Positions 4,267 through 31,945 of a DNA stretch of 34,676 nucleotides are shown piece after piece. A model generated the notes under the pieces. That model saw only the letters and a program-made list of their open reading frames with translations. It did not search any database and had not been told where the DNA came from. Source of the DNA: a virus. Lineage: Duplodnaviria > Heunggongvirae > Uroviricota > Caudoviricetes. A program made the translations under genes and the position numbers. The stretch lies in IMG/VR virus record IMGVR_UViG_2537561603_000002; one strand, given 5' to 3'. Every line of letters begins with the position of its first letter. The stretch's first letter is position 1.

Positions 4267-5120
4267 GCACCATCCTGAAATGGGCGGGTAATAAAACCAC
4301 CATTATGTCCGAACTGAAAAAATACCTTCCTGCTGGCACGCGACTGGTTGAACCTTTCGCGGGTTCTTGTGCTGTGATGATGGAGACGGATTACCCCAGC
4401 TATCTGGTTGCGGATATTAATCCTGATTTAATCAACCTCTATAAAAAGGTTGCTGCTGATTGTGAGGCGTTTATATCTCGTGCCAGAGCTTTATTTGAGG
4501 AAGCAAACAGAGAGGTGGCTTATTACAACATAAGGCAGGAGTTTAATTACTCCACTGAAATTACTGATTTCATGAAAGCGGTATATTTTCTGTATCTCAA
4601 TCGTCATGGTTACCGTGGGCTATGTCGCTATAACAAGAGCGGGTATTTCAACATTCCCTACGGTAATTATAAAAATCCGTATTTCCCTGAAAAAGAAATT
4701 CGCGCATTTGCAGAGAAAGCCCAGCGGGCAACGTTTATCTGCGCCAGCTTTGATGAAACGCTGGCGATGTTGAAGGCGGGGGATGTGGTGTATTGCGATC
4801 CGCTTTATGACGGTACGTTTTCCGGCTATCACACTGATGGCTTCACTGAAGATGACCAGTATCACCTGGCATCCGTTCTTGAACATCGATCATCTGAAGG
4901 TCATCCGGTCATTGTTTCTAACAGTGACACATCCCTGATCCGTTCGCTGTATCGCAATTTTACTCACCACTACATCAAGGCAAAACGCAGCATCGGCGTG
5001 GCAGCTGGTGAGAGTAAATCTGCAACAGAAATCATCGCTGTTTCCGGGCCGCGCTGCTGGGTAGGATTTGATCCTTCGCGTGGCGTGGATTGTTCCGTCG
5101 TGTACGGAGTGCGTGCATGA
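4263..5120 (+). CDS. dam: DNA adenine N6-methyltransferase (Dam-like, orphan)
   Basis: N-terminal SAM-binding motif (ILKWAGNK...VEPFAGS) and catalytic DPLY motif ([11 protein letters not shown]), as in Dam/T4-Dam class MTases. No adjacent restriction enzyme. Confidence 0.8.
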
Positions 5121-7531
5121 GCCATGCTGATATGAACAACTGCAGCGGCTTTAACGAGGTCGCCGCAGCATTCTCATGGAACAGCCCGAAAAAGGCCATT
5201 AACCCTTATCTGGACCCGGCGGAAGTTGCGCCGGTTTCTGCGCTTTCAAACCTGATCACTCTGTACGCTGCCGATAACGAGCAGGAACAACTGCGCCGCG
5301 AGGCACTGAGTGATCAGGTCTGGGAGCGTTATTTCTTTAATGAATCCCGTGATCCTGTCCAACGCGAAATGGAGCAGGATAAGCTAATTAGCCGGGCAAA
5401 GCTGGCGCATGAGCAGCAGCGTTTTAATCCAGACATGGCCATTCTGGCGGACGTCAACGCCCAGCCTTCCCATATCAGCAAGCCGCTGATGCAACGTATT
5501 AAATACTTCAGCAGCCTGGGCAGGCCAAAGGCTTATTCCCGCTATTTGCGTGAGACGATTAAGCCATGCTTGGAACGACTGGAGCATGTACGCGACAGTC
5601 AGCTATCCACTTCTTTTCGCTTTATGGCAAGCCATGAAGGGCTGGACGGCCTGCTGATCCTGCCTGAAATGAGTCAGGATCAGGTGAAACGCCTGTCCAC
5701 CTTGGTAGCTGCGCATATGAGCATGTGCCTTGATACAGCTTGTGGCGATTTGTATGCCACCGATGATGTTACGCCAGAAGAAATCCGCAAGACATGGGAA
5801 AAGGTGGCAGCGGAAACCCTGCGTCTGGATGTTATCCCGCCTGCGTTTGAGCAACTTTGTCGGAAAAGAAACCGCCGTAAACCCGTGCCTTATGAACTCA
5901 TTCCGGGTTCGCTGGCGCGTATGTTATGCGCCGACTGGTGGTATCGGAAATTATGGAAGATGCGTTGCGAATGGAGGGAAGAGCAGTTGCGTGCTGTTTG
6001 CCTGGTCAGCAAAAAAGCATCTCCCTATGTCAGCTATGAAGCCGTGATGCATAAACGTGAGCAGCGCCGTAAGTCGCTGGAGTTTTTCCGTTCTCATGAA
6101 CTGGTGAACGAAGACGGCGACACGCTGGATATGGAAGACGTGGTAAACGCCAGCAGCAGCAACCCTGCGCATCGCCGCAATGAGATGATGGCCTGTGTTA
6201 AAGGTCTGGAGCTTATCGCGGAAATGCGTGGTGACTGCGCCGTTTTCTACACCATCACCTGTCCGTCACGTTTCCATTCCACGCTAAATAACGGCAGGCC
6301 CAACCCGACCTGGACAAATGCGACGGTAAGACAAAGCAGTGATTATCTGGTCGGTATGTTTGCTGCATTTCGTAAGGCGATGCACAAAGCCGGATTACGC
6401 TGGTATGGCGTGCGGGTGGCTGAGCCGCATCATGACGGTACAGTTCACTGGCACCTGTTGTGTTTTATGCGCAAAAAAGATCGCCGCGCCATTACTGCTT
6501 TGTTGCGTAAGTTTGCCATTCGTGAAGACCGCGAGGAGCTGGGTAATAACACGGAACCACGCTTTAAGTCTGAGCTGATAAACCCGCGCAAAGGTACGCC
6601 AACAAGCTACATCGCGAAATACATCAGTAAGAACATTGACGGGCGTGGTCTGGCTGGCGAGATCAGCAAGGAAACGGGTAAATCCCTGCGTGATAACGCC
6701 GAATACGTTAATGCCTGGGCGTCTTTGCATCGTGTTCAGCAATTCCGCTTCTTTGGCATTCCGGGGCGTCAGGCTTACCGTGAACTGCGATTGCTGGCTG
6801 GTCAGGCGGCAAGGCAACAGGGGGACAAAAAAGCAGGTGCGCCGGTACTGGATAACCCGCGCCTTGATGCCATCCTGGCTGCCGCTGATGCTGGCTGTTT
6901 TGCCACCTACATCATGAAGCAGGGCGGCGTACTGGTTCCCCGCAAATATCACCTCATCAGAACCGCTTATGAAATCAACGAAGAGCCGACCGCCTATGGC
7001 GATCACGGTATTCGTATTTATGGCATCTGGTCACCCATTGCAGAGGGCAAGATCTGCACTCATGCGGTGAAGTGGAAAATGGTTCGTAAGGCCGTTGACA
7101 TTCAGGAGGCGGCAGCCGACCAGGGCGCTTGCGCCCCTTGGACTCGTGGCAATAACTGTCCCCTTGCTGAAAATTTGAACCAGCAGGAGAAAGATAAATC
7201 AGCTGATGGGGACACCAGAACGGACATTACCTGCATGGATGACAAGGAGTTGCACGATTATCTGCACAGTATGAGCAAAAAAGATCGCCGGGAACTGGCA
7301 GCAAGGTTACGCCTGGTGAAACCGAAACGGCGTAAAGACTACAAACAGCGAATTACAGACCATCAGCGACAGCAGCTTGTCTATGAACTGAAGTCCAGAG
7401 GATTTGATGGCAGCGAGAAAGAGGTCGAGTTGCTCCTTCGCGGTGGCAGTATTCCGTCAGGAGCAGGCCTGCGTATCTTCTATCGGAACCAGCGTCTGCA
7501 GGAGGATGATAAATGGCGGAACATGTATTAA
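5117..7531 (+). CDS. A: Replication initiation protein A (rolling-circle HUH endonuclease)
   Basis: About 804 aa from ATG 5117 (ATGA overlap with dam stop); HUH motif ([13 protein letters not shown]) and downstream Tyr motif ([11 protein letters not shown]) typical of P2 gpA / 186 RepA. Confidence 0.85.
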
Positions 7532-8245: not shown

Positions 8246-8986
8246 TCAGTTTTCTTTGAATTTTTCACTTAATCGTTTCGTCAATACTTCGACAGATTCT
8301 TTGCGACCGGAGAACAAGTCATTGACGACGTACTCCATAATCTCAAAAGCATCCTCAATGTCTTTGACTTTTACTTCATCGTAGGTATGGCTTCCGGCAT
8401 TTCCTAAAAATTTAATTGCCATAAGAGGTCTTGAAAACGATCCGTATAATTCAGGTAGCATCCCTAAACGGTGGTGTAGAGTTATGCGTTTGCCATTATC
8501 ATTACGTTCAGCTACATCCATAGCGGTTAGCATTCTTTCAACTGAAATTCGAATTAGGTTTGCTGCTGCGCCAGGCTGTATTAGGAAAATGGAAAATGAG
8601 GCTTCAAGCGGTTCGGTAATTTCTTCTGGGCATTTTTCAGGTATTTCGAAAGGATGCAGTGATGGGTAAAAGGTGAAAGGTCTGTGCCATTGATAGTACT
8701 CAATATCATTTCTTTCTTCATCCCAACCTTGTTCCCATCCACTCTTACCAGTACAGGCCACAACTTCACCACATTGCATTCTTGAACAGCGGGCCATGCA
8801 ACTGAAAATAGATGAATCCATTTCTAGTTCAAACCAATCTTCACTGCGGAATTTTCGGGTATCATGTGTGTCATACGAGACGAAACTTTCTTTAATGATC
8901 TGTAGGGTTTTCTGATTGCAGTTAGGGCAGGGCCACTCAACCTGCATATCGTGGAAAAACGCACCAGAGAGCTTGTGCACAGTCAT
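8246..8986 (-). CDS. Cargo hypothetical protein (246 aa): N-terminal Cys-rich (zinc-ribbon-like) region plus C-terminal alpha-helical domain; candidate defence protein
   Basis: Reverse-strand ORF with SD gagga upstream of ATG 8986; CPNC...CxxxCxxxxC...C cysteines; C-terminal region holds an R-x4-H motif (KRITLHH); lower GC than backbone; in the A-to-Q variable region. Confidence 0.55.
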   Translation of the reverse strand: MTVHKLSGAFFHDMQVEWPCPNCNQKTLQIIKESFVSYDTHDTRKFRSEDWFELEMDSSIFSCMARCSRMQCGEVVACTGKSGWEQGWDEERNDIEYYQWHRPFTFYPSLHPFEIPEKCPEEITEPLEASFSIFLIQPGAAANLIRISVERMLTAMDVAERNDNGKRITLHHRLGMLPELYGSFSRPLMAIKFLGNAGSHTYDEVKVKDIEDAFEIMEYVVNDLFSGRKESVEVLTKRLSEKFKEN

Positions 8987-9250
8987 TCTTTGTGTTCCTC
9001 ATTTTTATGATTGGTAGGGATTGTATCTTCATACACGATTACAGTTGCATTAAAGATAAGCCATAGCAAGCTACTGGAAAAGAGACGAAACAGCTGGGCA
9101 TATCAGATGTTTTTTCTTAAGGTAAGTTGTTGTGCATGCCTATACTGCATGAGATTGCATGATCGTTTGAGGATCGTTATTGCTAAGGCCCACCAGAACT
9201 GGCGGGCTTTTGCGTAGAGCATGCAGGTGCATGAAAACAACTACATAAAG

Positions 9251-9280
9251 CGGGCAGGCGTGGCGGGGATACGATTGCGC
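9251..9280. other. Candidate cos (cohesive end) site
   Basis: ggcgtggcggggatacgat resembles the P2/186-family cohesive-end sequence as I recall it (P2 GGCGAGGCGGGGAAAGCAC). Recalled, not verified. Confidence 0.3.
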
Positions 9281-9356
9281 GCAGAAGATTATTATTGGTA
9301 CACTGTCGGTGACTCTCTACGCAGATCTTACACATTAATTTCTAATGGGGCATGCT

Positions 9357-10157
9357 ATGATCTTTCTAAGTCATAATCACCGTGACAAAAGGTTTGTAAG
9401 TGTTATAGCGGAAAAACTAGCAGATGTTTATGGGCGTGATAACGTATTCTACGATTCTTGGTCTATCCAACCCGGAGAGGGTATTATTGACAAGATGAAT
9501 TTAGGAATGGAGAATGTATCGTTCTTTTTCTTTTTTGTCACAGAAAATAGCTTGGCAAGTAACATGGTAAAAATGGAATGGCAAAATGCTTTAATTAAGG
9601 CATCGTCCGGGAAGTGTAAATTTATACCAATACGTTGCCAGAATATATCCTTGCCTGCTCTGCTTACTCAAACGCTATATATTGATCTTTATTCGTATGG
9701 GATCGATGTGGCAATAAGACAAATTATAGATGTCATTAATCAACAAAATACGTATATTCCTAATCCTGAGAAGTATTCAAACCTCTCCTATGATATTAAG
9801 GATGATGATGGGGGTAAGATAGTGAAATTATCAGCAATGGATTTTTTAGAACCAATTGCTGATTTTATGATGATTATGGATAATACAATTAAGCATGATG
9901 ATGTTGTTGTTATGGTCAATGGAGAAAGCTCATTCACTCAGGGGTTTATTGAAAATGCATCTTTAGAAAATGGTATGAAAGTAAGTGGTGCCACTGTTGG
10001 CCTAAATCGGGGGTTAACACCAACGATGCCAATGTATGTTTCTCTTAGGTTAAAGGATGGTTCACCTTTGAATATATTTGCGGTGCTACATCGAGTAAGT
10101 ACCGAGCGTTATGCTCCTATACCACATAAAGCCGATGATGCCTTTAGAGTAAAATAA
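9357..10157 (+). CDS. TIR-domain protein (about 266 aa) with C-terminal domain of unknown function; candidate defence effector or sensor
   Basis: N-terminus MIFLSHNHRDKRFV...FYDSWSIQPGEGI...VTENSLASNMVKMEWQNAL follows the TIR pattern (FxSHxxxD, SW, conserved Glu in a W..E motif). AT-rich; alternative start at 9345; stem-loop terminator downstream. Confidence 0.6.
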   Translation: MIFLSHNHRDKRFVSVIAEKLADVYGRDNVFYDSWSIQPGEGIIDKMNLGMENVSFFFFFVTENSLASNMVKMEWQNALIKASSGKCKFIPIRCQNISLPALLTQTLYIDLYSYGIDVAIRQIIDVINQQNTYIPNPEKYSNLSYDIKDDDGGKIVKLSAMDFLEPIADFMMIMDNTIKHDDVVVMVNGESSFTQGFIENASLENGMKVSGATVGLNRGLTPTMPMYVSLRLKDGSPLNIFAVLHRVSTERYAPIPHKADDAFRVK

Positions 10158-10165
10158 AAAGCAAT

Positions 10166-10200
10166 ATGGTGGCTATATAATTAAGGCCACCAATTTATAT
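10166..10200. terminator. Stem-loop between convergent TIR gene and portal gene Q (likely bidirectional terminator)
   Basis: Inverted repeat tggtggc (10167-10173) / gccacca (10186-10192) flanked by A/T-rich sequence. Confidence 0.45.
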
Positions 10201-10201
10201 C

Positions 10202-11230
10202 TCATAAACAATAGGATGAAAATGCAATAACTTTCTCACCCAGCCAATGGTTTAACTCCTCCATGCGTTTCTGTAATGGCAAAAGTTCATTGCGCACAAA
10301 CACATTTGCGGCCTTCTCCACATCCCCAAACCCTCCAACATTATTAGGCATAATCCCCATCATTTGCGGCGGCACGCGGTGCGCAGCCATCATGTCATCA
10401 CGGCTCACGTTCTTGATATTCAAAAACTCATCCTTCGCCGCCACCTCTGACAACGGGATAATCTGAAGCCCGTCCTTTTTGCCGTTAGGCGAGTACATAA
10501 ACAGGTTGCGGAAGTTACCCGGACCTTTGGCACTTTTCATTGCATTGCGGAGGTTGTTCACGTCCTCCTGGTTCTGCGCAGCATCGGTCATGTACATGAT
10601 GAAGCCTGCATGACTACCGTTAATGTAATACTTGCGGCGGAACAGCGTGGCGGACTCATTGAGCAGGGCGGACGGAATGGCAGAAAGATAGCCGGGCAGG
10701 CCGTAGATTTCCTGGTTAATGTCCGGTTCCATCAGATGAAAAATGCTGCCTTTCGTGAACTGATACGGCTGGGTTGTCATACCGTATTGCACAAACCAGT
10801 AGGTATCCAGGTCTAACCCGCGTCGGGTGTATTTTGCCAGAGCAGGCTCAAGGGCGATAACTTCACCGAAGCGGTTCGTGCGTTTCTCCAGGTAGGCGTT
10901 ACCAAATACCAGATAGTCCTGCACAAAACGTGAAAAAGCCTGCTGGCTGAGCAGCGGGTGAGGGATGTAGGTACTGGTCAGAATGTTGCATTTCACCGCA
11001 ATTGGTGAACTGTGATGCACGGCGGCGCGGAAGGTGCGCGCCAGTCCGTCAAAGCTTACTGGCGGCTCATACCAGCGATCTGTCTGTACGCATTCCACAT
11101 AGTCCAGTAGTTCGCGGCGATCCAGAACAGGAACGGGATCACCGAAGCTGAATGCTTCGGCTGTAGTTTGACTTTTATGCCGGATCTGGTTTGTCGACGC
11201 AGCGCGGTTCTTCTTACTCTTTCCCATCAA
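10202..11230 (-). CDS. Q: Portal protein (P2 gpQ-like)
   Basis: 342-aa ORF, leftward, immediately downstream of and overlapping terminase P (ATGA-type overlap at 11227-11230); size and position match P2 Q (344 aa). Confidence 0.85.
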   Translation of the reverse strand: MMGKSKKNRAASTNQIRHKSQTTAEAFSFGDPVPVLDRRELLDYVECVQTDRWYEPPVSFDGLARTFRAAVHHSSPIAVKCNILTSTYIPHPLLSQQAFSRFVQDYLVFGNAYLEKRTNRFGEVIALEPALAKYTRRGLDLDTYWFVQYGMTTQPYQFTKGSIFHLMEPDINQEIYGLPGYLSAIPSALLNESATLFRRKYYINGSHAGFIMYMTDAAQNQEDVNNLRNAMKSAKGPGNFRNLFMYSPNGKKDGLQIIPLSEVAAKDEFLNIKNVSRDDMMAAHRVPPQMMGIMPNNVGGFGDVEKAANVFVRNELLPLQKRMEELNHWLGEKVIAFSSYCL

Positions 11231-12993
11231 AAAATCTCCACAATATTACTGGTATTGGCGGACTCGCCCTGCAGTGGTTCGTTAAACAGTGCGTGCATTG
11301 TTGCCCAGGCCAGATCGGCGTGGCTGGCTTCTTCGCTGCGGCTGGCTTCATAGGTCGGGCGGTTGCCGCTGGCAGTGGTGGCGCGACGGATTGCCATAAA
11401 GGACTGCGCTATGTCGGTGTGCCCGGCGTCAAACTCCAGGCGGCGGTGGCTAATAATGTCGTAGGCCTTGAGTACCAGGGCGTTTTTAACGTTGGGGTTG
11501 TAGACAAACTCCCGGACGGCAGGAAAAAACGCTTTCACGTTCTCGTAAACCCCGTGACCGACGCCGGTTGAGTCGATACCGATGTATGTCACGTTGTACT
11601 GTTCAGTCAGTTTTTTGATGGCGTCAGCCTGGGCGCGGAAGTCCATCCCGCGCCACTGGTGACGCTCAAGAATGCGGAACTTACCGCCCGGCACGGCTGG
11701 CGGTGCCACCACCACGCACCCGGCGCTGTCGCCGTTTTGCGTACCTTTTGCCGGGTCATAACCGATCCACACTTCGCGCCAGCCAAACGGGCGCAGGGCC
11801 AGTGCATGAAAGTCGGTCCAGACTTCCCAACTGTCCACCATGCACGCCTGCAGCTCGCTGAGCGGGAACACGGACGCGAAATCGTCCACAAACTCGCACA
11901 TCAGCAGGTTCTGGTATTCGTCCGGGCTGTACTCCATGCGCAACTGATCGAGGTCGAAAAGGTTACATCCGCCGCGCACTGCATCTTCCACGGTGACTAT
12001 CTGGCGGTATTGCCCGTCTGCGCACAGCAGGCCGGGGGCCAGATTGCTGTGGGACAGGTCGATGTCCACCTTATCGGCTTTATTGCGCCCACGGTTGAAC
12101 AGCGCACCGGACCAGAACGGATAAGCACTGTGTGTCAGGCTGGATGGCGTGGAAAAATAGGTTTGTCGCCATTTTTTGTGAATAGCCATACCGGAAGCCA
12201 CTTTGCGCAGCTCCTGGAATTTCGGTATCCAGAAATATTCATCCAGATACAGGTTGCCGTGGTAACTCTGGGCCGTGCGGGCATTGGTGCCGAGGAAGTA
12301 AAGCGTGGCTCCGTTAGGAAGCACCATCGGATCGCCTTTCAGCTCCACCTCGACTTCTTTGGCGAAGTCTATGATGTACTGCTTAAAGACGTGAGCCTGT
12401 GCCTTGCTGGCGGAAAGAAAAATCTGGTTACGTCCGGTAAGCAGAGCGTCAATCAGGGCTTCACGGGCAAAGTAAAAGGTCGCGCCGATCTGGCGTGACT
12501 TCAGCAGGTTGCGGATGCGGTTGGTTTTTCCGGCTTCCCACCAGTGGCGCTGGTAGTTGAACATGGAGGAATGGAAGATTTCTTCCAGCTTCTCAATCTG
12601 CTCATCGGTGAAAACATTCTTTTCCGGCTGACGGCGCGGGCCTTTGTTGCGGTTGGCGACGTTAGGGTTTAAGTCGGCTTCGTTGCCGCCATTGTTAAAC
12701 TTGCCGATCCGCGCGTGGCGTTCCGACTGGCGCGCCAGCAGGTCAATCTCTTTGAAATCTTTCCCTTCTTTGTGCTCCTTCATAATGAGCTGGCAGTAGC
12801 GTGCGGCGGTGGTGAGCTGCATCTGATCCAGCGGCCCATAGTCACCCCACTTGTCGCGTTTTTTCCAGCTGTGAACGGTTGCAACTTTCTCGCCCAGCAT
12901 TTCAGCAATGCGGGCTACGCGGTATCCCTGAAAGTACAGCAGCATGGCCTGCCGACGGGGATCGAGATCTGCGGGTGTCAGTGTGGTGTTCAT
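11227..12993 (-). CDS. P: Terminase large (ATPase) subunit (P2 gpP-like)
   Basis: 588-aa ORF divergent from capsid operon O-N-M-L; size and position match P2 P (590 aa). Confidence 0.85.
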   Translation of the reverse strand: MNTTLTPADLDPRRQAMLLYFQGYRVARIAEMLGEKVATVHSWKKRDKWGDYGPLDQMQLTTAARYCQLIMKEHKEGKDFKEIDLLARQSERHARIGKFNNGGNEADLNPNVANRNKGPRRQPEKNVFTDEQIEKLEEIFHSSMFNYQRHWWEAGKTNRIRNLLKSRQIGATFYFAREALIDALLTGRNQIFLSASKAQAHVFKQYIIDFAKEVEVELKGDPMVLPNGATLYFLGTNARTAQSYHGNLYLDEYFWIPKFQELRKVASGMAIHKKWRQTYFSTPSSLTHSAYPFWSGALFNRGRNKADKVDIDLSHSNLAPGLLCADGQYRQIVTVEDAVRGGCNLFDLDQLRMEYSPDEYQNLLMCEFVDDFASVFPLSELQACMVDSWEVWTDFHALALRPFGWREVWIGYDPAKGTQNGDSAGCVVVAPPAVPGGKFRILERHQWRGMDFRAQADAIKKLTEQYNVTYIGIDSTGVGHGVYENVKAFFPAVREFVYNPNVKNALVLKAYDIISHRRLEFDAGHTDIAQSFMAIRRATTASGNRPTYEASRSEEASHADLAWATMHALFNEPLQGESANTSNIVEIF

Positions 12994-15047: not shown

Positions 15048-15698
15048 ATGAGCCTGAGTCCCGCACGGCAGCATCGCCTGCGCGTTCAGGCTGAACAGGC
15101 CGCCCGCGAGGGCGGCAGTGTTCGCCACGCATCGGGCTATGACCTGATGCTGCTGCAACTGGCGGAAGACCGCCGCCGTCTCAAGGGCGTTCAGTCCACG
15201 GTCAAAAAAGCGGAAATCAAGGTGGAGCTGCTGCCGAAGTACGCCGCCTGGGCAGAGGGTGTCCTGGCTGCCGGAGGCGCTCAACAGGATGACGTGCTGA
15301 TGTACGTGATGCTGTGGCGCATTGATGCCGGAGATTATGCCGGGGCGCTGGAGATCGGGCGTCACGCCCTGCGTCATGGCTGGGTGATGCCGTTGGGTAA
15401 CCGCAACGTGCAGACCGTGCTGGCAGAGGAAATGGCAGACGCGGCGCAGAGCGCAATGCTTGCCGCCACCGGCTTTGATGCTGATCTGTTGCTGCAGACG
15501 CTGGAGCTGACAGACGGTCTGGATATGCCGGACCAGTCACGGGCACGTCTGCATAAAGCGATTGGCGCTGTCCTGAGTGAAAGCAATCCGGCTTCCGCCC
15601 TTAATCATCTCAACCATGCGTTACAGCTCGATCCCCGCTGTGGCGTGAAAAAAGACAAACAGCAGCTGGAGCGCAGACTGCGCAATGACAGCCGCTGA
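15048..15698 (+). CDS. M: Terminase small (endonuclease) subunit (P2 gpM-like)
   Basis: 216-aa ORF directly after N, in the canonical O-N-M-L order. Confidence 0.75.
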   Translation: MSLSPARQHRLRVQAEQAAREGGSVRHASGYDLMLLQLAEDRRRLKGVQSTVKKAEIKVELLPKYAAWAEGVLAAGGAQQDDVLMYVMLWRIDAGDYAGALEIGRHALRHGWVMPLGNRNVQTVLAEEMADAAQSAMLAATGFDADLLLQTLELTDGLDMPDQSRARLHKAIGAVLSESNPASALNHLNHALQLDPRCGVKKDKQQLERRLRNDSR

Positions 15699-18578: not shown

Positions 18579-19316
18579 TCATTCATTGTCAAATAATTTT
18601 TGCTCTTTCAATATTTGTGTCGAAAAATTATTGCTTATTAATTTTACAAGCTTGCCGCACAAATTAAATGAATATCTAAAATAATCTAAGTCAGGGATGA
18701 GGTATTCTTTTTCTTCAGAGGATATTCCTGCCTCTAATAATTTTTTTTCATATCTTTGGTCCTTCACCCAATTATTATGGACTCCTGTGTCTCGTCTTGC
18801 TTTAATTTCAATGTATTGTTTTAAGAGATGTTCTATTTTCTTTTTGTCTAAGCATAAGAGTTTGCATAATTTATTGATGTATTCTTTGGGTGATCCAAAT
18901 GTGAGACTCGCGACTCCTTCGTTGACTAGATAGTCAAAAAGTTCATCTTCAGATAATGACTTAAACACCCCATAATCACACTTAATTTTATTTAGTTTTT
19001 CTGGATTGATCCTGAAGGTCAACTTCATGATTTCAATAATGTAATCTTCAAATGCTGAAACAAGCGAACTAAAGCACAATGATGGCATATGTTTTGTTAT
19101 TAAATCATGCCGTATTCCTTTATCTGAGATTTCAGGTGAATGTTTTTCCAGAAAGCATTCAAGATTTGTATAAGCCTCATAAAGCTGAGGGTTAGTTTCC
19201 TCATTGGCGTGAGAGATGGCAATGTTTTGAAATATAATTGTTCTGAATAAAATATCAGCTTTAATAAAATATGATGATGTGATTTTATCCAGGAAGAGAT
19301 AATTATCGGAGTGCAT
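18579..19316 (-). CDS. Cargo hypothetical protein (245 aa), AT-rich, antisense to the late operon; candidate abortive-infection/defence protein
   Basis: ORF with SD gaggaa 5 nt before ATG 19316; markedly AT-rich and Lys/Asn/Ile-rich, unlike flanking GC-balanced tail genes; inserted where P2 has S and V adjacent. Contains an R-x4-H motif (RRDTGVHNN), weak evidence. Confidence 0.55.
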   Translation of the reverse strand: MHSDNYLFLDKITSSYFIKADILFRTIIFQNIAISHANEETNPQLYEAYTNLECFLEKHSPEISDKGIRHDLITKHMPSLCFSSLVSAFEDYIIEIMKLTFRINPEKLNKIKCDYGVFKSLSEDELFDYLVNEGVASLTFGSPKEYINKLCKLLCLDKKKIEHLLKQYIEIKARRDTGVHNNWVKDQRYEKKLLEAGISSEEKEYLIPDLDYFRYSFNLCGKLVKLISNNFSTQILKEQKLFDNE

Positions 19317-30407: not shown

Positions 30408-31512
30408 ATTTCAGCTCTGAACTGCTTAACAAAGGCAACAAAACTCCGGCATTCAGCATCAGTGTTGAGGGCAGGGATATCACCACTGTGCTGGACAACC
30501 GCCTGATGGGGCTTACGCTGACGGATAACCGGGGCTTTGAAGCGGACCAGCTTGATCTGGAGCTGGACGACGCTGATGGAAAAATCGTGCTGCCGCGCCG
30601 TGGTGCGGTCATTACGCTGGCGCTGGGCTGGAAGGGACAGCCGCTTTTCCCGAAAGGGGCATTCACGGTGGACGAGATTGAACACACTGGCGCACCGGAC
30701 CGCCTGACCATCCGGGCGCGAAGTGCTGATTTTCGGGAAACGCTGAATACCCGCCGTGAAAAATCGTGGCACAAGACCACGGTCGGGGAAGTGGTGAAGG
30801 AAATAGCTGCGCGGCACAAACTGAAGATGGCACTGGGTAAAGACCTGTCGGATAAGCCCGTGGAACATATAGACCAGACCAATGAGAGTGACGGCAGTTT
30901 TCTGATGCGGCTGGCGCGCCAGTACGGTGCTATTGCGTCGGTGAAAAATGGCAATCTGTTATTCATCCGGCAGGGACAGGGCAAAAGCGCCAGCGGTAAA
31001 CCTCTGCCGGTGATCACTATCACACGCAAGGACGGCGACAGTCACCGCTTTACCCTGGCAGATCGCGGAGCCTATACGGGCGTAATTGCCAGTTGGTTGC
31101 ATACCCGCGAACCCGCGAACCCGCGAAGAAAGAAAGCACCACGGTGAAGCGTAAGCGCAGGACCGCAAAGCAGAAGAAAGAGCCGGAAGCGAAGCAGGGC
31201 GATTACCTGGTGGGTACGGATGAAAACGTGCTGGTACTTAATCGCACTTATGCCAACCGGAGCAACGCCGAACGGGCAGCGAAAATGCAGTGGGAACGCC
31301 TGCAACGCGGCGTTGCATCATTCTCGCTACAACCGGCGGAAGGGCGGGCAGATCTCTACACAGAAATGCCTGTGAAGGTCAGTGGCTTTAAACAGCCGAT
31401 AGATGATGCGGAATGGACCATTACGACTCTGACGCATACCGTCAGCCCGGATAACGGTTTTACGACCAGTCTGGAGCTTGAAGTGAGGATTGATGATTTC
31501 GAAATGGAATGA
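30404..31512 (+). pseudogene. D: Tail protein D (late control gene D) interrupted by a frameshift in an 8-bp tandem repeat (ACCCGCGA x3 at 31103-31126)
   Basis: Two ORFs (30404-31147 and 31093-31512, different frames) together cover a gpD-length protein; deleting one 8-bp unit gives one continuous ~366-aa ORF (…HTREPAKKESTTVKRKRR…). Confidence 0.65.
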
Positions 31513-31843: not shown

Positions 31844-31900
31844 TCGTTAAAAAACAGTGCTTCTAACGTCATGATTTTAAACGGCATAAATTTCAGGCAA

Positions 31901-31945
31901 CAAAAAACCCATCAACCTTGAACCGAAATGGCGGGGTTGATGGGC
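31901..31945 (-). terminator. Rho-independent terminator of ybjL (minus strand)
   Basis: Stem cccatcaac (31908-31916) / gttgatggg (31936-31944); on the minus strand it is followed by a T-rich run (complement of aaaaaa at 31902-31907). Confidence 0.6.

Follow-up and report, generated by a model that had tools for sequence, protein, structure and literature searches.

The window, by which we mean the whole 34,676-nucleotide stretch that was analysed, carries a P2-family prophage with a 186-type CI repressor, a Dam methylase and, at the window start, an integrase, and over most of its length it is approximately 95–96% identical to deposited Klebsiella and Escherichia phages. The prophage adjoins the host genes ybjL and ybjM. 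Its left end lies beyond the window start, the integrase ORF running to base 1, and its right end by ybjL is marked by AACAAAAAACCCAT at 31899–31912, an att core that is the same as the 14-bp core mapped for the phage of E. coli HS; homology to phage records stops there. Starting from gpA (5090–7531), the order is gpA, DinI, DUF4145, the cos candidate, TIR, Q, P, O, N and M, so that the candidate stands where cos is placed in the P2 family (Table 1). It occupies a 370-bp non-coding gap with the DUF4145 gene on its left, on the minus strand, and the TIR gene on its right, on the plus strand, a divergent pair flanking cos just as a first reading of the sequence alone had described. The cos–TIR–Q stretch as a whole (8990–10210) is 100% identical in four complete E. 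coli chromosomes.

Table 1. Coordinates of the predicted cos site, its internal elements, the neighbouring cargo and the packaging genes
Feature	Position in window	Strand	Basis
DUF4145 cargo gene (WP_000215882), transcribed away from cos	8246..8986	-	Pfam DUF4145 E = 5e-13
Conserved non-coding cos block, -125 to +26 relative to the predicted top-strand nick	9132..9282	+	per-position identity, 73 contigs
Three TGCAT motifs (starts 9133, 9146, 9156)	9133..9160	+	multiple alignment; fourth TGCAT at 9228
Inverted repeat GGCCCACCAGAACTGGCGGGCC then TTTTG, terminator-like on the + strand	9185..9210	+	folding
Likely counterpart of the P2/P4 common stretch (29 + 19 + 7 = 55 bases)	9228..9282	+	alignment
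Predicted 19-nt 5' cohesive end GGCGTGGCGGGGATACGAT	9257-9275	+	homology to P2-family cos
Right-hand cargo cassette between cos and Q	9283..10201	+	homology breaks against relatives with other cargo
TIR-domain cargo gene (266 aa, WP_000576798)	9357..10157	+	Pfam TIR_2 E = 4e-23; RefSeq CDS
GC-rich hairpin between convergent TIR and Q, terminator-like on both strands	10167..10192	.	folding
Portal gene Q	10202..11227	-	Pfam Phage_portal; RefSeq
Large terminase gene P, expected cos nicking enzyme	11227..12993	-	Pfam Terminase_6N, Terminase_6C, Terminase_5
Small terminase gene M, expected to recognise the cos block	15048..15698	+	Pfam Phage_term_smal E = 2e-40

The sequence ggcgtggcggggatacgat was found on the plus strand at 9257–9275, where the sequence-only reading had noticed a likeness to the P2/186 cohesive end. 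A 16-base degenerate P2/186-type cos pattern, run over both strands of the 34,676 bases with up to two mismatches allowed, returned this site and no other, and matched it with 0 mismatches. Shuffled sequences give 0.09 expected matches to the pattern at two mismatches, that is, 9 of 100 shuffles contain one, and on these grounds the match might be taken for an accidental likeness between G-rich sequences that plays no part in packaging. The real match has no mismatch at all, however, and the 151 bp around it are homologous throughout to verified cos regions and kept in more than 1000 genomes, which makes a chance origin extremely improbable. The site that had been noticed is thus present, is the sole one in the window and is homologous to the cos of the P2 family.

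As references we used the 19-nt cohesive ends annotated in the records of P2, 186, PSP3 and P4. Alignment with the first three of these, which had been proposed as a check, gave a match in register that extends into the flanking block: the 19-mer is 16/19 identical to 186 and PSP3, with which it shares its first 13 bases, and 14/19 identical to P2 and, in the fourth reference, P4. All four have, like the window, a 19-nt 5' cohesive end opening GGCG(A/T)GGCGGGG, with AAGCGGGC on its left and (T/C)GCGCGC on its right, a TGCAT.AAAAC element and upstream TGCAT repeats at equal spacing, and the recognition block on the right-end side. The window differs from them at overhang positions 14, 16 and 17 (ATACGAT against AAAGCAT/C). 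Over a longer stretch of 55 bases, laid out as TGCATGAAAAC...AAGCGGGCA, then the 19-mer, then TGCGCGC, identity is 42/55 to P2, 45/55 to 186, 46/55 to PSP3 and 41/55 to P4, on a scale where P2 and 186 agree with each other at 48/55, and it rises to 51–52/55 for the Salmonella phages SEN8, Fels-2, SopEphi and RE-2010. We infer from this alignment both the borders of the stretch and its probable equivalence to the 55-bp P2-family cos core of Ziermann and Calendar 1990, which is cited in PMC5694545.

Conservation around the site was then scored in close relatives, namely 80 viral contigs with a portal protein at least 93% identical, 73 of which had enough DNA downstream of Q. Exactly one cos motif lies beyond Q in 73/73 of the latter. 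When these contigs were lined up on the motif and identity to the window was scored position by position, most positions of a 151-bp block were 80–100% identical, and just outside 9132–9282 identity was approximately 0.25, the random level, on both sides. A megablast search with 8990–10210 gave 34 phage records in which the similarity is confined to roughly 155 bp of non-coding sequence surrounding the motif (82–93% identity); among 5426 complete E. coli genomes the block was found in 1151 and the TIR gene in just 9. The boundaries of the block in these phages and in the 1151 genomes fall at approximately 9128/9147 and 9282 of the window. Such a pattern is the signature of an essential cis-acting site set in variable DNA, and, as far as sequence can tell, 9132–9282 is a cis-acting packaging signal with unrelated cargo DNA on either side.

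About 125 bp are reportedly needed for cos function in P2, a figure said to come from Ziermann and Calendar in 1990. The block in the window reaches −125, and the TGCAT repeats within it are common to all the reference cos regions, as in an extended cos. In an alignment of seven sequences (window, SEN8, Fels-2, P2, 186, PSP3 and P4) the TGCAT copies at 9146, 9156 and 9228 are invariant, as are AAAAC and AAG.GGGC, and the copy at 9133 sits one base out of register in P2 and has a changed sequence in PSP3. With both orientations counted (the complement ATGCA is at 9221), the cos block has 5 TGCAT motifs per 152 bp, compared with 2.1 per kb in the window. We regard the TGCAT motifs as putative terminase recognition elements. 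The terminator-like repeat at 9185–9210 folds with −18.5 kcal/mol (z = −2.2), and an inverted repeat is found at the same place in 186, PSP3 and P4, the stem sequence of P4 being different, with none in P2. The window has an A at 9192, where 72 of the 73 relatives have another base, and this gives an A.C mismatch in the stem. A consensus scan called no terminators, and the hairpins described here were seen by folding only.

Besides P2, 186 and P4, whose ends are classical mappings taken from the record annotations, the cos of one relative has been mapped from sequencing read starts. In the prophage of E. coli HS it lies at NC_009800.1:926016-926034, with the sequence GGCGTGGCGGGGATACGAG (Zund et al. 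2021, PMC8008629, Suppl. Table S4), and was located after induction by read start-site analysis and PhageTerm (PMC8008629). The HS site aligns exactly with window 9257–9275 and is identical to it at 18 of the 19 bases, the same value as for the SEN8 and Fels-2 type. The surrounding blocks agree at 136/151 positions, and the Q-P-O-N genes are 96% identical. The position is also alike, between accessory genes on the DinI side and Q with a cargo gene in the cos–Q interval, which in HS measures 1512 bp and contains a 1392-bp gene. The cargo itself differs on both sides, HS encoding a hypothetical 463-aa protein where the window has TIR, and the last overhang base with the base that follows it reads G-C in HS and T-T in the window. 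This pair (9275–9276) is G-C in 69 of the 73 relatives and T-T in the 4 others and the window, mixed states being absent among them; at the equivalent place 186 and PSP3 have T-T, P2 has C-T and P4 has C-C.

The first reading had remarked that the cos-like sequence lies away from the 3' end of Q, beside which cos was expected. Its position is confirmed, with 926 bp between the end of the 19-mer and the stop codon of Q and the TIR gene occupying the interval, but the expectation fits P2, 186 and PSP3 only. Those three phages, unlike the window, have about 170–190 bp with a terminator between cos and the portal gene, and they carry cargo on one side of cos only (old/tin, tum/orf97). Among the 73 relatives the cos–Q interval is 180–3521 bp long and at least 524 bp in all except two; a cos beside Q is not the rule in this group because 71/73 carry 0.5–3.5 kb of variable cargo in between. 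By positional analogy with P2, 186 and PSP3, where the distance from cos to Q is about 170–190 bp, one could still argue that the true cos lies beside the Q 3' end at 10158–10201 as in P2 and 186 and that 9257 is a decoy or a remnant, and the first reading had itself named genome ends in that segment as a finding that would speak against it. The scan found no cos-like motif there, nor anywhere in the window besides 9257–9275. What 10158–10201 contains is the GC hairpin (−13.8 and −14.5 kcal/mol, z = −3.2 and −2.5) in sequence that is specific to the cassette and not conserved in the relatives, all of which have hairpins of their own, and the mapped cos of the HS relative is 1512 bp from Q. We therefore rejected this segment as an alternative cos and give virtually no credence to a cos beside Q. 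The placement of the TIR gene at the left packaged end, between cos and Q, which had been proposed on condition that the 9257 site is real, is supported by the in-register homology to defined cos sequences.

The same arrangement is found in Salmonella phages. SEN8, Fels-2, SopEphi and RE-2010 (Felsduovirus) carry, like the window, one or two accessory genes between cos and Q: two in SEN8, two in SopEphi, others in Fels-2 and in RE-2010, where the product is annotated as an abortive-infection protein; the E. coli HS prophage likewise has cargo there. The genes to the right of cos differ from that of the window (HNH endonuclease, abortive-infection protein, others), and cos in these phages was annotated by similarity and is called "putative" in SEN8. 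SEN8, an isolated phage with the layout of the window, shares the DUF4145 gene of the window (SEN8_49) to the left of cos and does not share TIR. Its record begins with the annotated putative cos and ends at the base that matches window 9256, and its genome announcement gives cos as ggcgtggcggggatacgag (PMC5427200).

The cargo on the two sides of cos was sorted into sequence classes in 74 elements with Q at least 93% identical. The cos–Q intervals fall into 44–45 unrelated classes and the left flanks into 22, and left and right cargo assort almost freely, with 64 combinations among the 74 elements. Two of the contigs (L011 and L012) and 9 of the complete E. coli genomes carry the right-hand cassette of the window as well, and in five E. 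coli genomes TIR is present without the left flank of the window. Hypervariable content thus lies between conserved flanks of otherwise near-identical phages, as in a hotspot; the cos–Q slot is the more variable of the two (45 against 22 classes), and its cassettes are bounded by position +27 on the cos side and by the final codons of Q on the other. On the Q side the border lies within the last ~10 codons, so that the C terminus of the portal protein varies with the cassette (L011–L090), and each cassette has its own GC hairpin terminator downstream of Q.

Rousset et al. 2022 (PMC9122126) described the stretch near cos, from gpA to gpQ, in P2-like phages as a hotspot of anti-phage systems and counted 1650 arrangements in 18,150 loci, and the hotspot was reported again on a larger scale in NAR 2026 (PMC13586616). 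ORFs between cosL and gpQ had been noted earlier in PMC5694545, with Dodd and Egan 1996 and Nakayama 1999 as its sources. The window resembles the hotspot in having variable accessory or defence genes by cos between A and Q. The entries of the Rousset locus table that were covered include the DUF4145 protein WP_000215882 and arrangements that contain TIR_2, and the TIR protein WP_000576798 was not found among those entries (PMC9122126). Since the cos-proximal hotspot and the SEN8 cos have been published, the layout is already known: the cos type, its position and the cos–Q cargo are documented for close relatives, and the arrangement is an ordinary one. The two surveys (PMC9122126, PMC13586616) treat the hotspot as one locus, whereas the present analysis divides it into two slots, one on each side of cos. 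A tentative extension, which we would not favor at present, is that the cos block stays fixed as a hinge while the cargo slots on its two sides evolve separately, that outward-facing defence genes at the ends are selected, and that the TIR family is perhaps a single-gene defence. Knowing that TIR and DUF4145 sit in a known cos-proximal hotspot helps in the choice of candidate defence genes.

The TIR ORF opens at 9345, the RefSeq start is at 9357 and the stop at 10157. Glu74 of its product, a conserved catalytic-type residue, falls at the W/C-x-x-E position in alignment with TIR proteins of solved structure (PDB sequence hits) and is invariant in 64 homologues. In the AlphaFold model (pLDDT 89.8) the N-terminal part adopts a TIR fold and the C-terminal part is an all-beta domain. 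By Foldseek the TIR fold matches AbTir with a TM score of 0.84 normalised to the target and an rmsd of 1.7 Å, and the C-terminal beta domain gave no convincing match, its CBM3-like hits having a TM score of about 0.25. Full-length homologues of approximately 260 aa and 41–52% identity are widespread in Enterobacterales, Vibrio, Bacteroidota and Burkholderia, and they stand alone on unrelated mobile elements (loci L094–L099), among them the nin region of an Enterobacter lambdoid prophage and a small integrative element in Burkholderia. Membership of a Thoeris system was considered and rejected, as TIR has only cos and Q beside it and no ThsA (SIR2/Macro-SLOG), and the match to ThsB is weak (E = 7e-4); assignment to TIR-NLR or retron-TIR systems was likewise rejected, the PADLOC and NCBIfam matches being weak and at the level of the domain. 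For neither cargo protein did the PADLOC and NCBIfam models give a confident assignment, the DUF4145 protein having a weak PADLOC match to PD-T7-4 (E = 1.6e-5). A role in NAD+-consuming abortive-infection defence is a reasonable inference for the TIR protein as a candidate, and this 266-aa protein, a TIR domain joined to a beta-sandwich, may represent a single-gene defence system that has yet to be characterised.

Taken together, homology, sharp conservation boundaries, uniqueness, gene content and variable flanks support the identification of 9257–9275 as a genuine cos of the P2 family. We consider it very likely that 9132–9282 is the cos of a Fels-2/SEN8-type (Felsduovirus-like, P2-family) E. 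coli prophage by ybjL, with 19-nt staggered nicking at 9257/9275 and exchangeable cargo on either side. After excision and replication, a terminase made up of M (small subunit) and P (large subunit) would recognise the ~125 bp to the left of the cut, presumably by binding the TGCAT repeats of the recognition block. By homology to the mapped relatives, the top strand would be cut just before 9257 and the bottom strand just after 9275, a stagger that would produce 5' cohesive ends of 19 nt. The linear DNA that is packaged would then start with GGCGTGGCGGGGATACGAT-TGCGCGC, followed by the TIR cassette, as the first ~0.95 kb of virion DNA, and then by Q, and it would close with the DUF4145 cassette and the 125-bp recognition block as its last ~1 kb. 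Both cargo genes point away from cos, and the two cassettes would be independent, exchangeable accessory modules, probably with anti-phage functions, filling the two halves of the gpA-cos-gpQ hotspot with the cos block between them as the only common sequence. The terminator-like repeat at 9185–9210 would insulate cos and TIR from rightward read-through, and TIR would therefore have its own promoter in 9283–9356, a segment in which a consensus scan saw no convincing sigma-70 promoter for TIR. For this member of the prophage family the ends of the packaged genome can thus be predicted, and annotation would take cos, not the Q terminator, as the genome start. Counting against the identification are the T-T at 9275–9276 in place of the G-C of the mapped HS site and 69/73 relatives, the one mismatched stem position in the inverted repeat at 9185–9210, and the frameshift of gene D in the window.

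The cos of lambda (cosQ-cosN-cosB) is also composite, with a nicking site and a neighbouring terminase recognition region, and serves unit-length packaging with 5' cohesive ends. It differs from the site in the window in its 12-nt overhang and unrelated sequence, and its cosB is on the left-end side by the terminase genes, whereas the block in the window is on the side that becomes the right end. The composite nature of lambda cos as a packaging site is described in PMC4669245.

The late-control/tail gene D, expected at 30408–31511 on the plus strand, is split into two ORFs in the window by expansion of an 8-bp tandem repeat, ACCCGCGA, which is present three times at 31103–31126; SCU-115 has two copies and an intact D. 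Three complete E. coli genomes contain exactly the same 141-bp stretch, and for one of them, strain Rb-23, the RefSeq annotation records a frameshift in D. Strains TUM14697 and 1002W03, like Rb-23, have D in its frameshifted form. Because this tail gene is frameshifted, the copy in the window may be unable to release infectious particles. It is accordingly conceivable, but in our judgment rather doubtful, that the 9257 site is a true cos by descent within a defective prophage, its place at the left end of the packaged genome being then a matter of history; the split of D by the threefold repeat and the recurrence of the 141-bp stretch in the three genomes, Rb-23 among them, speak for such a reading. 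In P2, D is a tail gene, and terminase cleavage and head filling are independent of it, so that these steps would not need D here either. The cos block, Q, P, M, the integrase and the att core are all intact, the near-identical SCU-115 prophage, which is 100% identical over 8990–10210 and so has the same cos and TIR cassette, has an intact D, and an 8-bp repeat is able to revert by slippage. A cos that belongs to a Fels-2/SEN8-type prophage and is used as outlined above is the reading we prefer. The gene D repeat itself could reflect either a defective prophage or slippage-prone variation.

Elsewhere in the prophage, a 245-aa ORF lies at 18579–19316 on the minus strand, opposite to the surrounding late (lysis/tail) genes. 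Searches of Pfam and PADLOC gave no match for it, and it is perhaps a further accessory gene, located at a second variable site.
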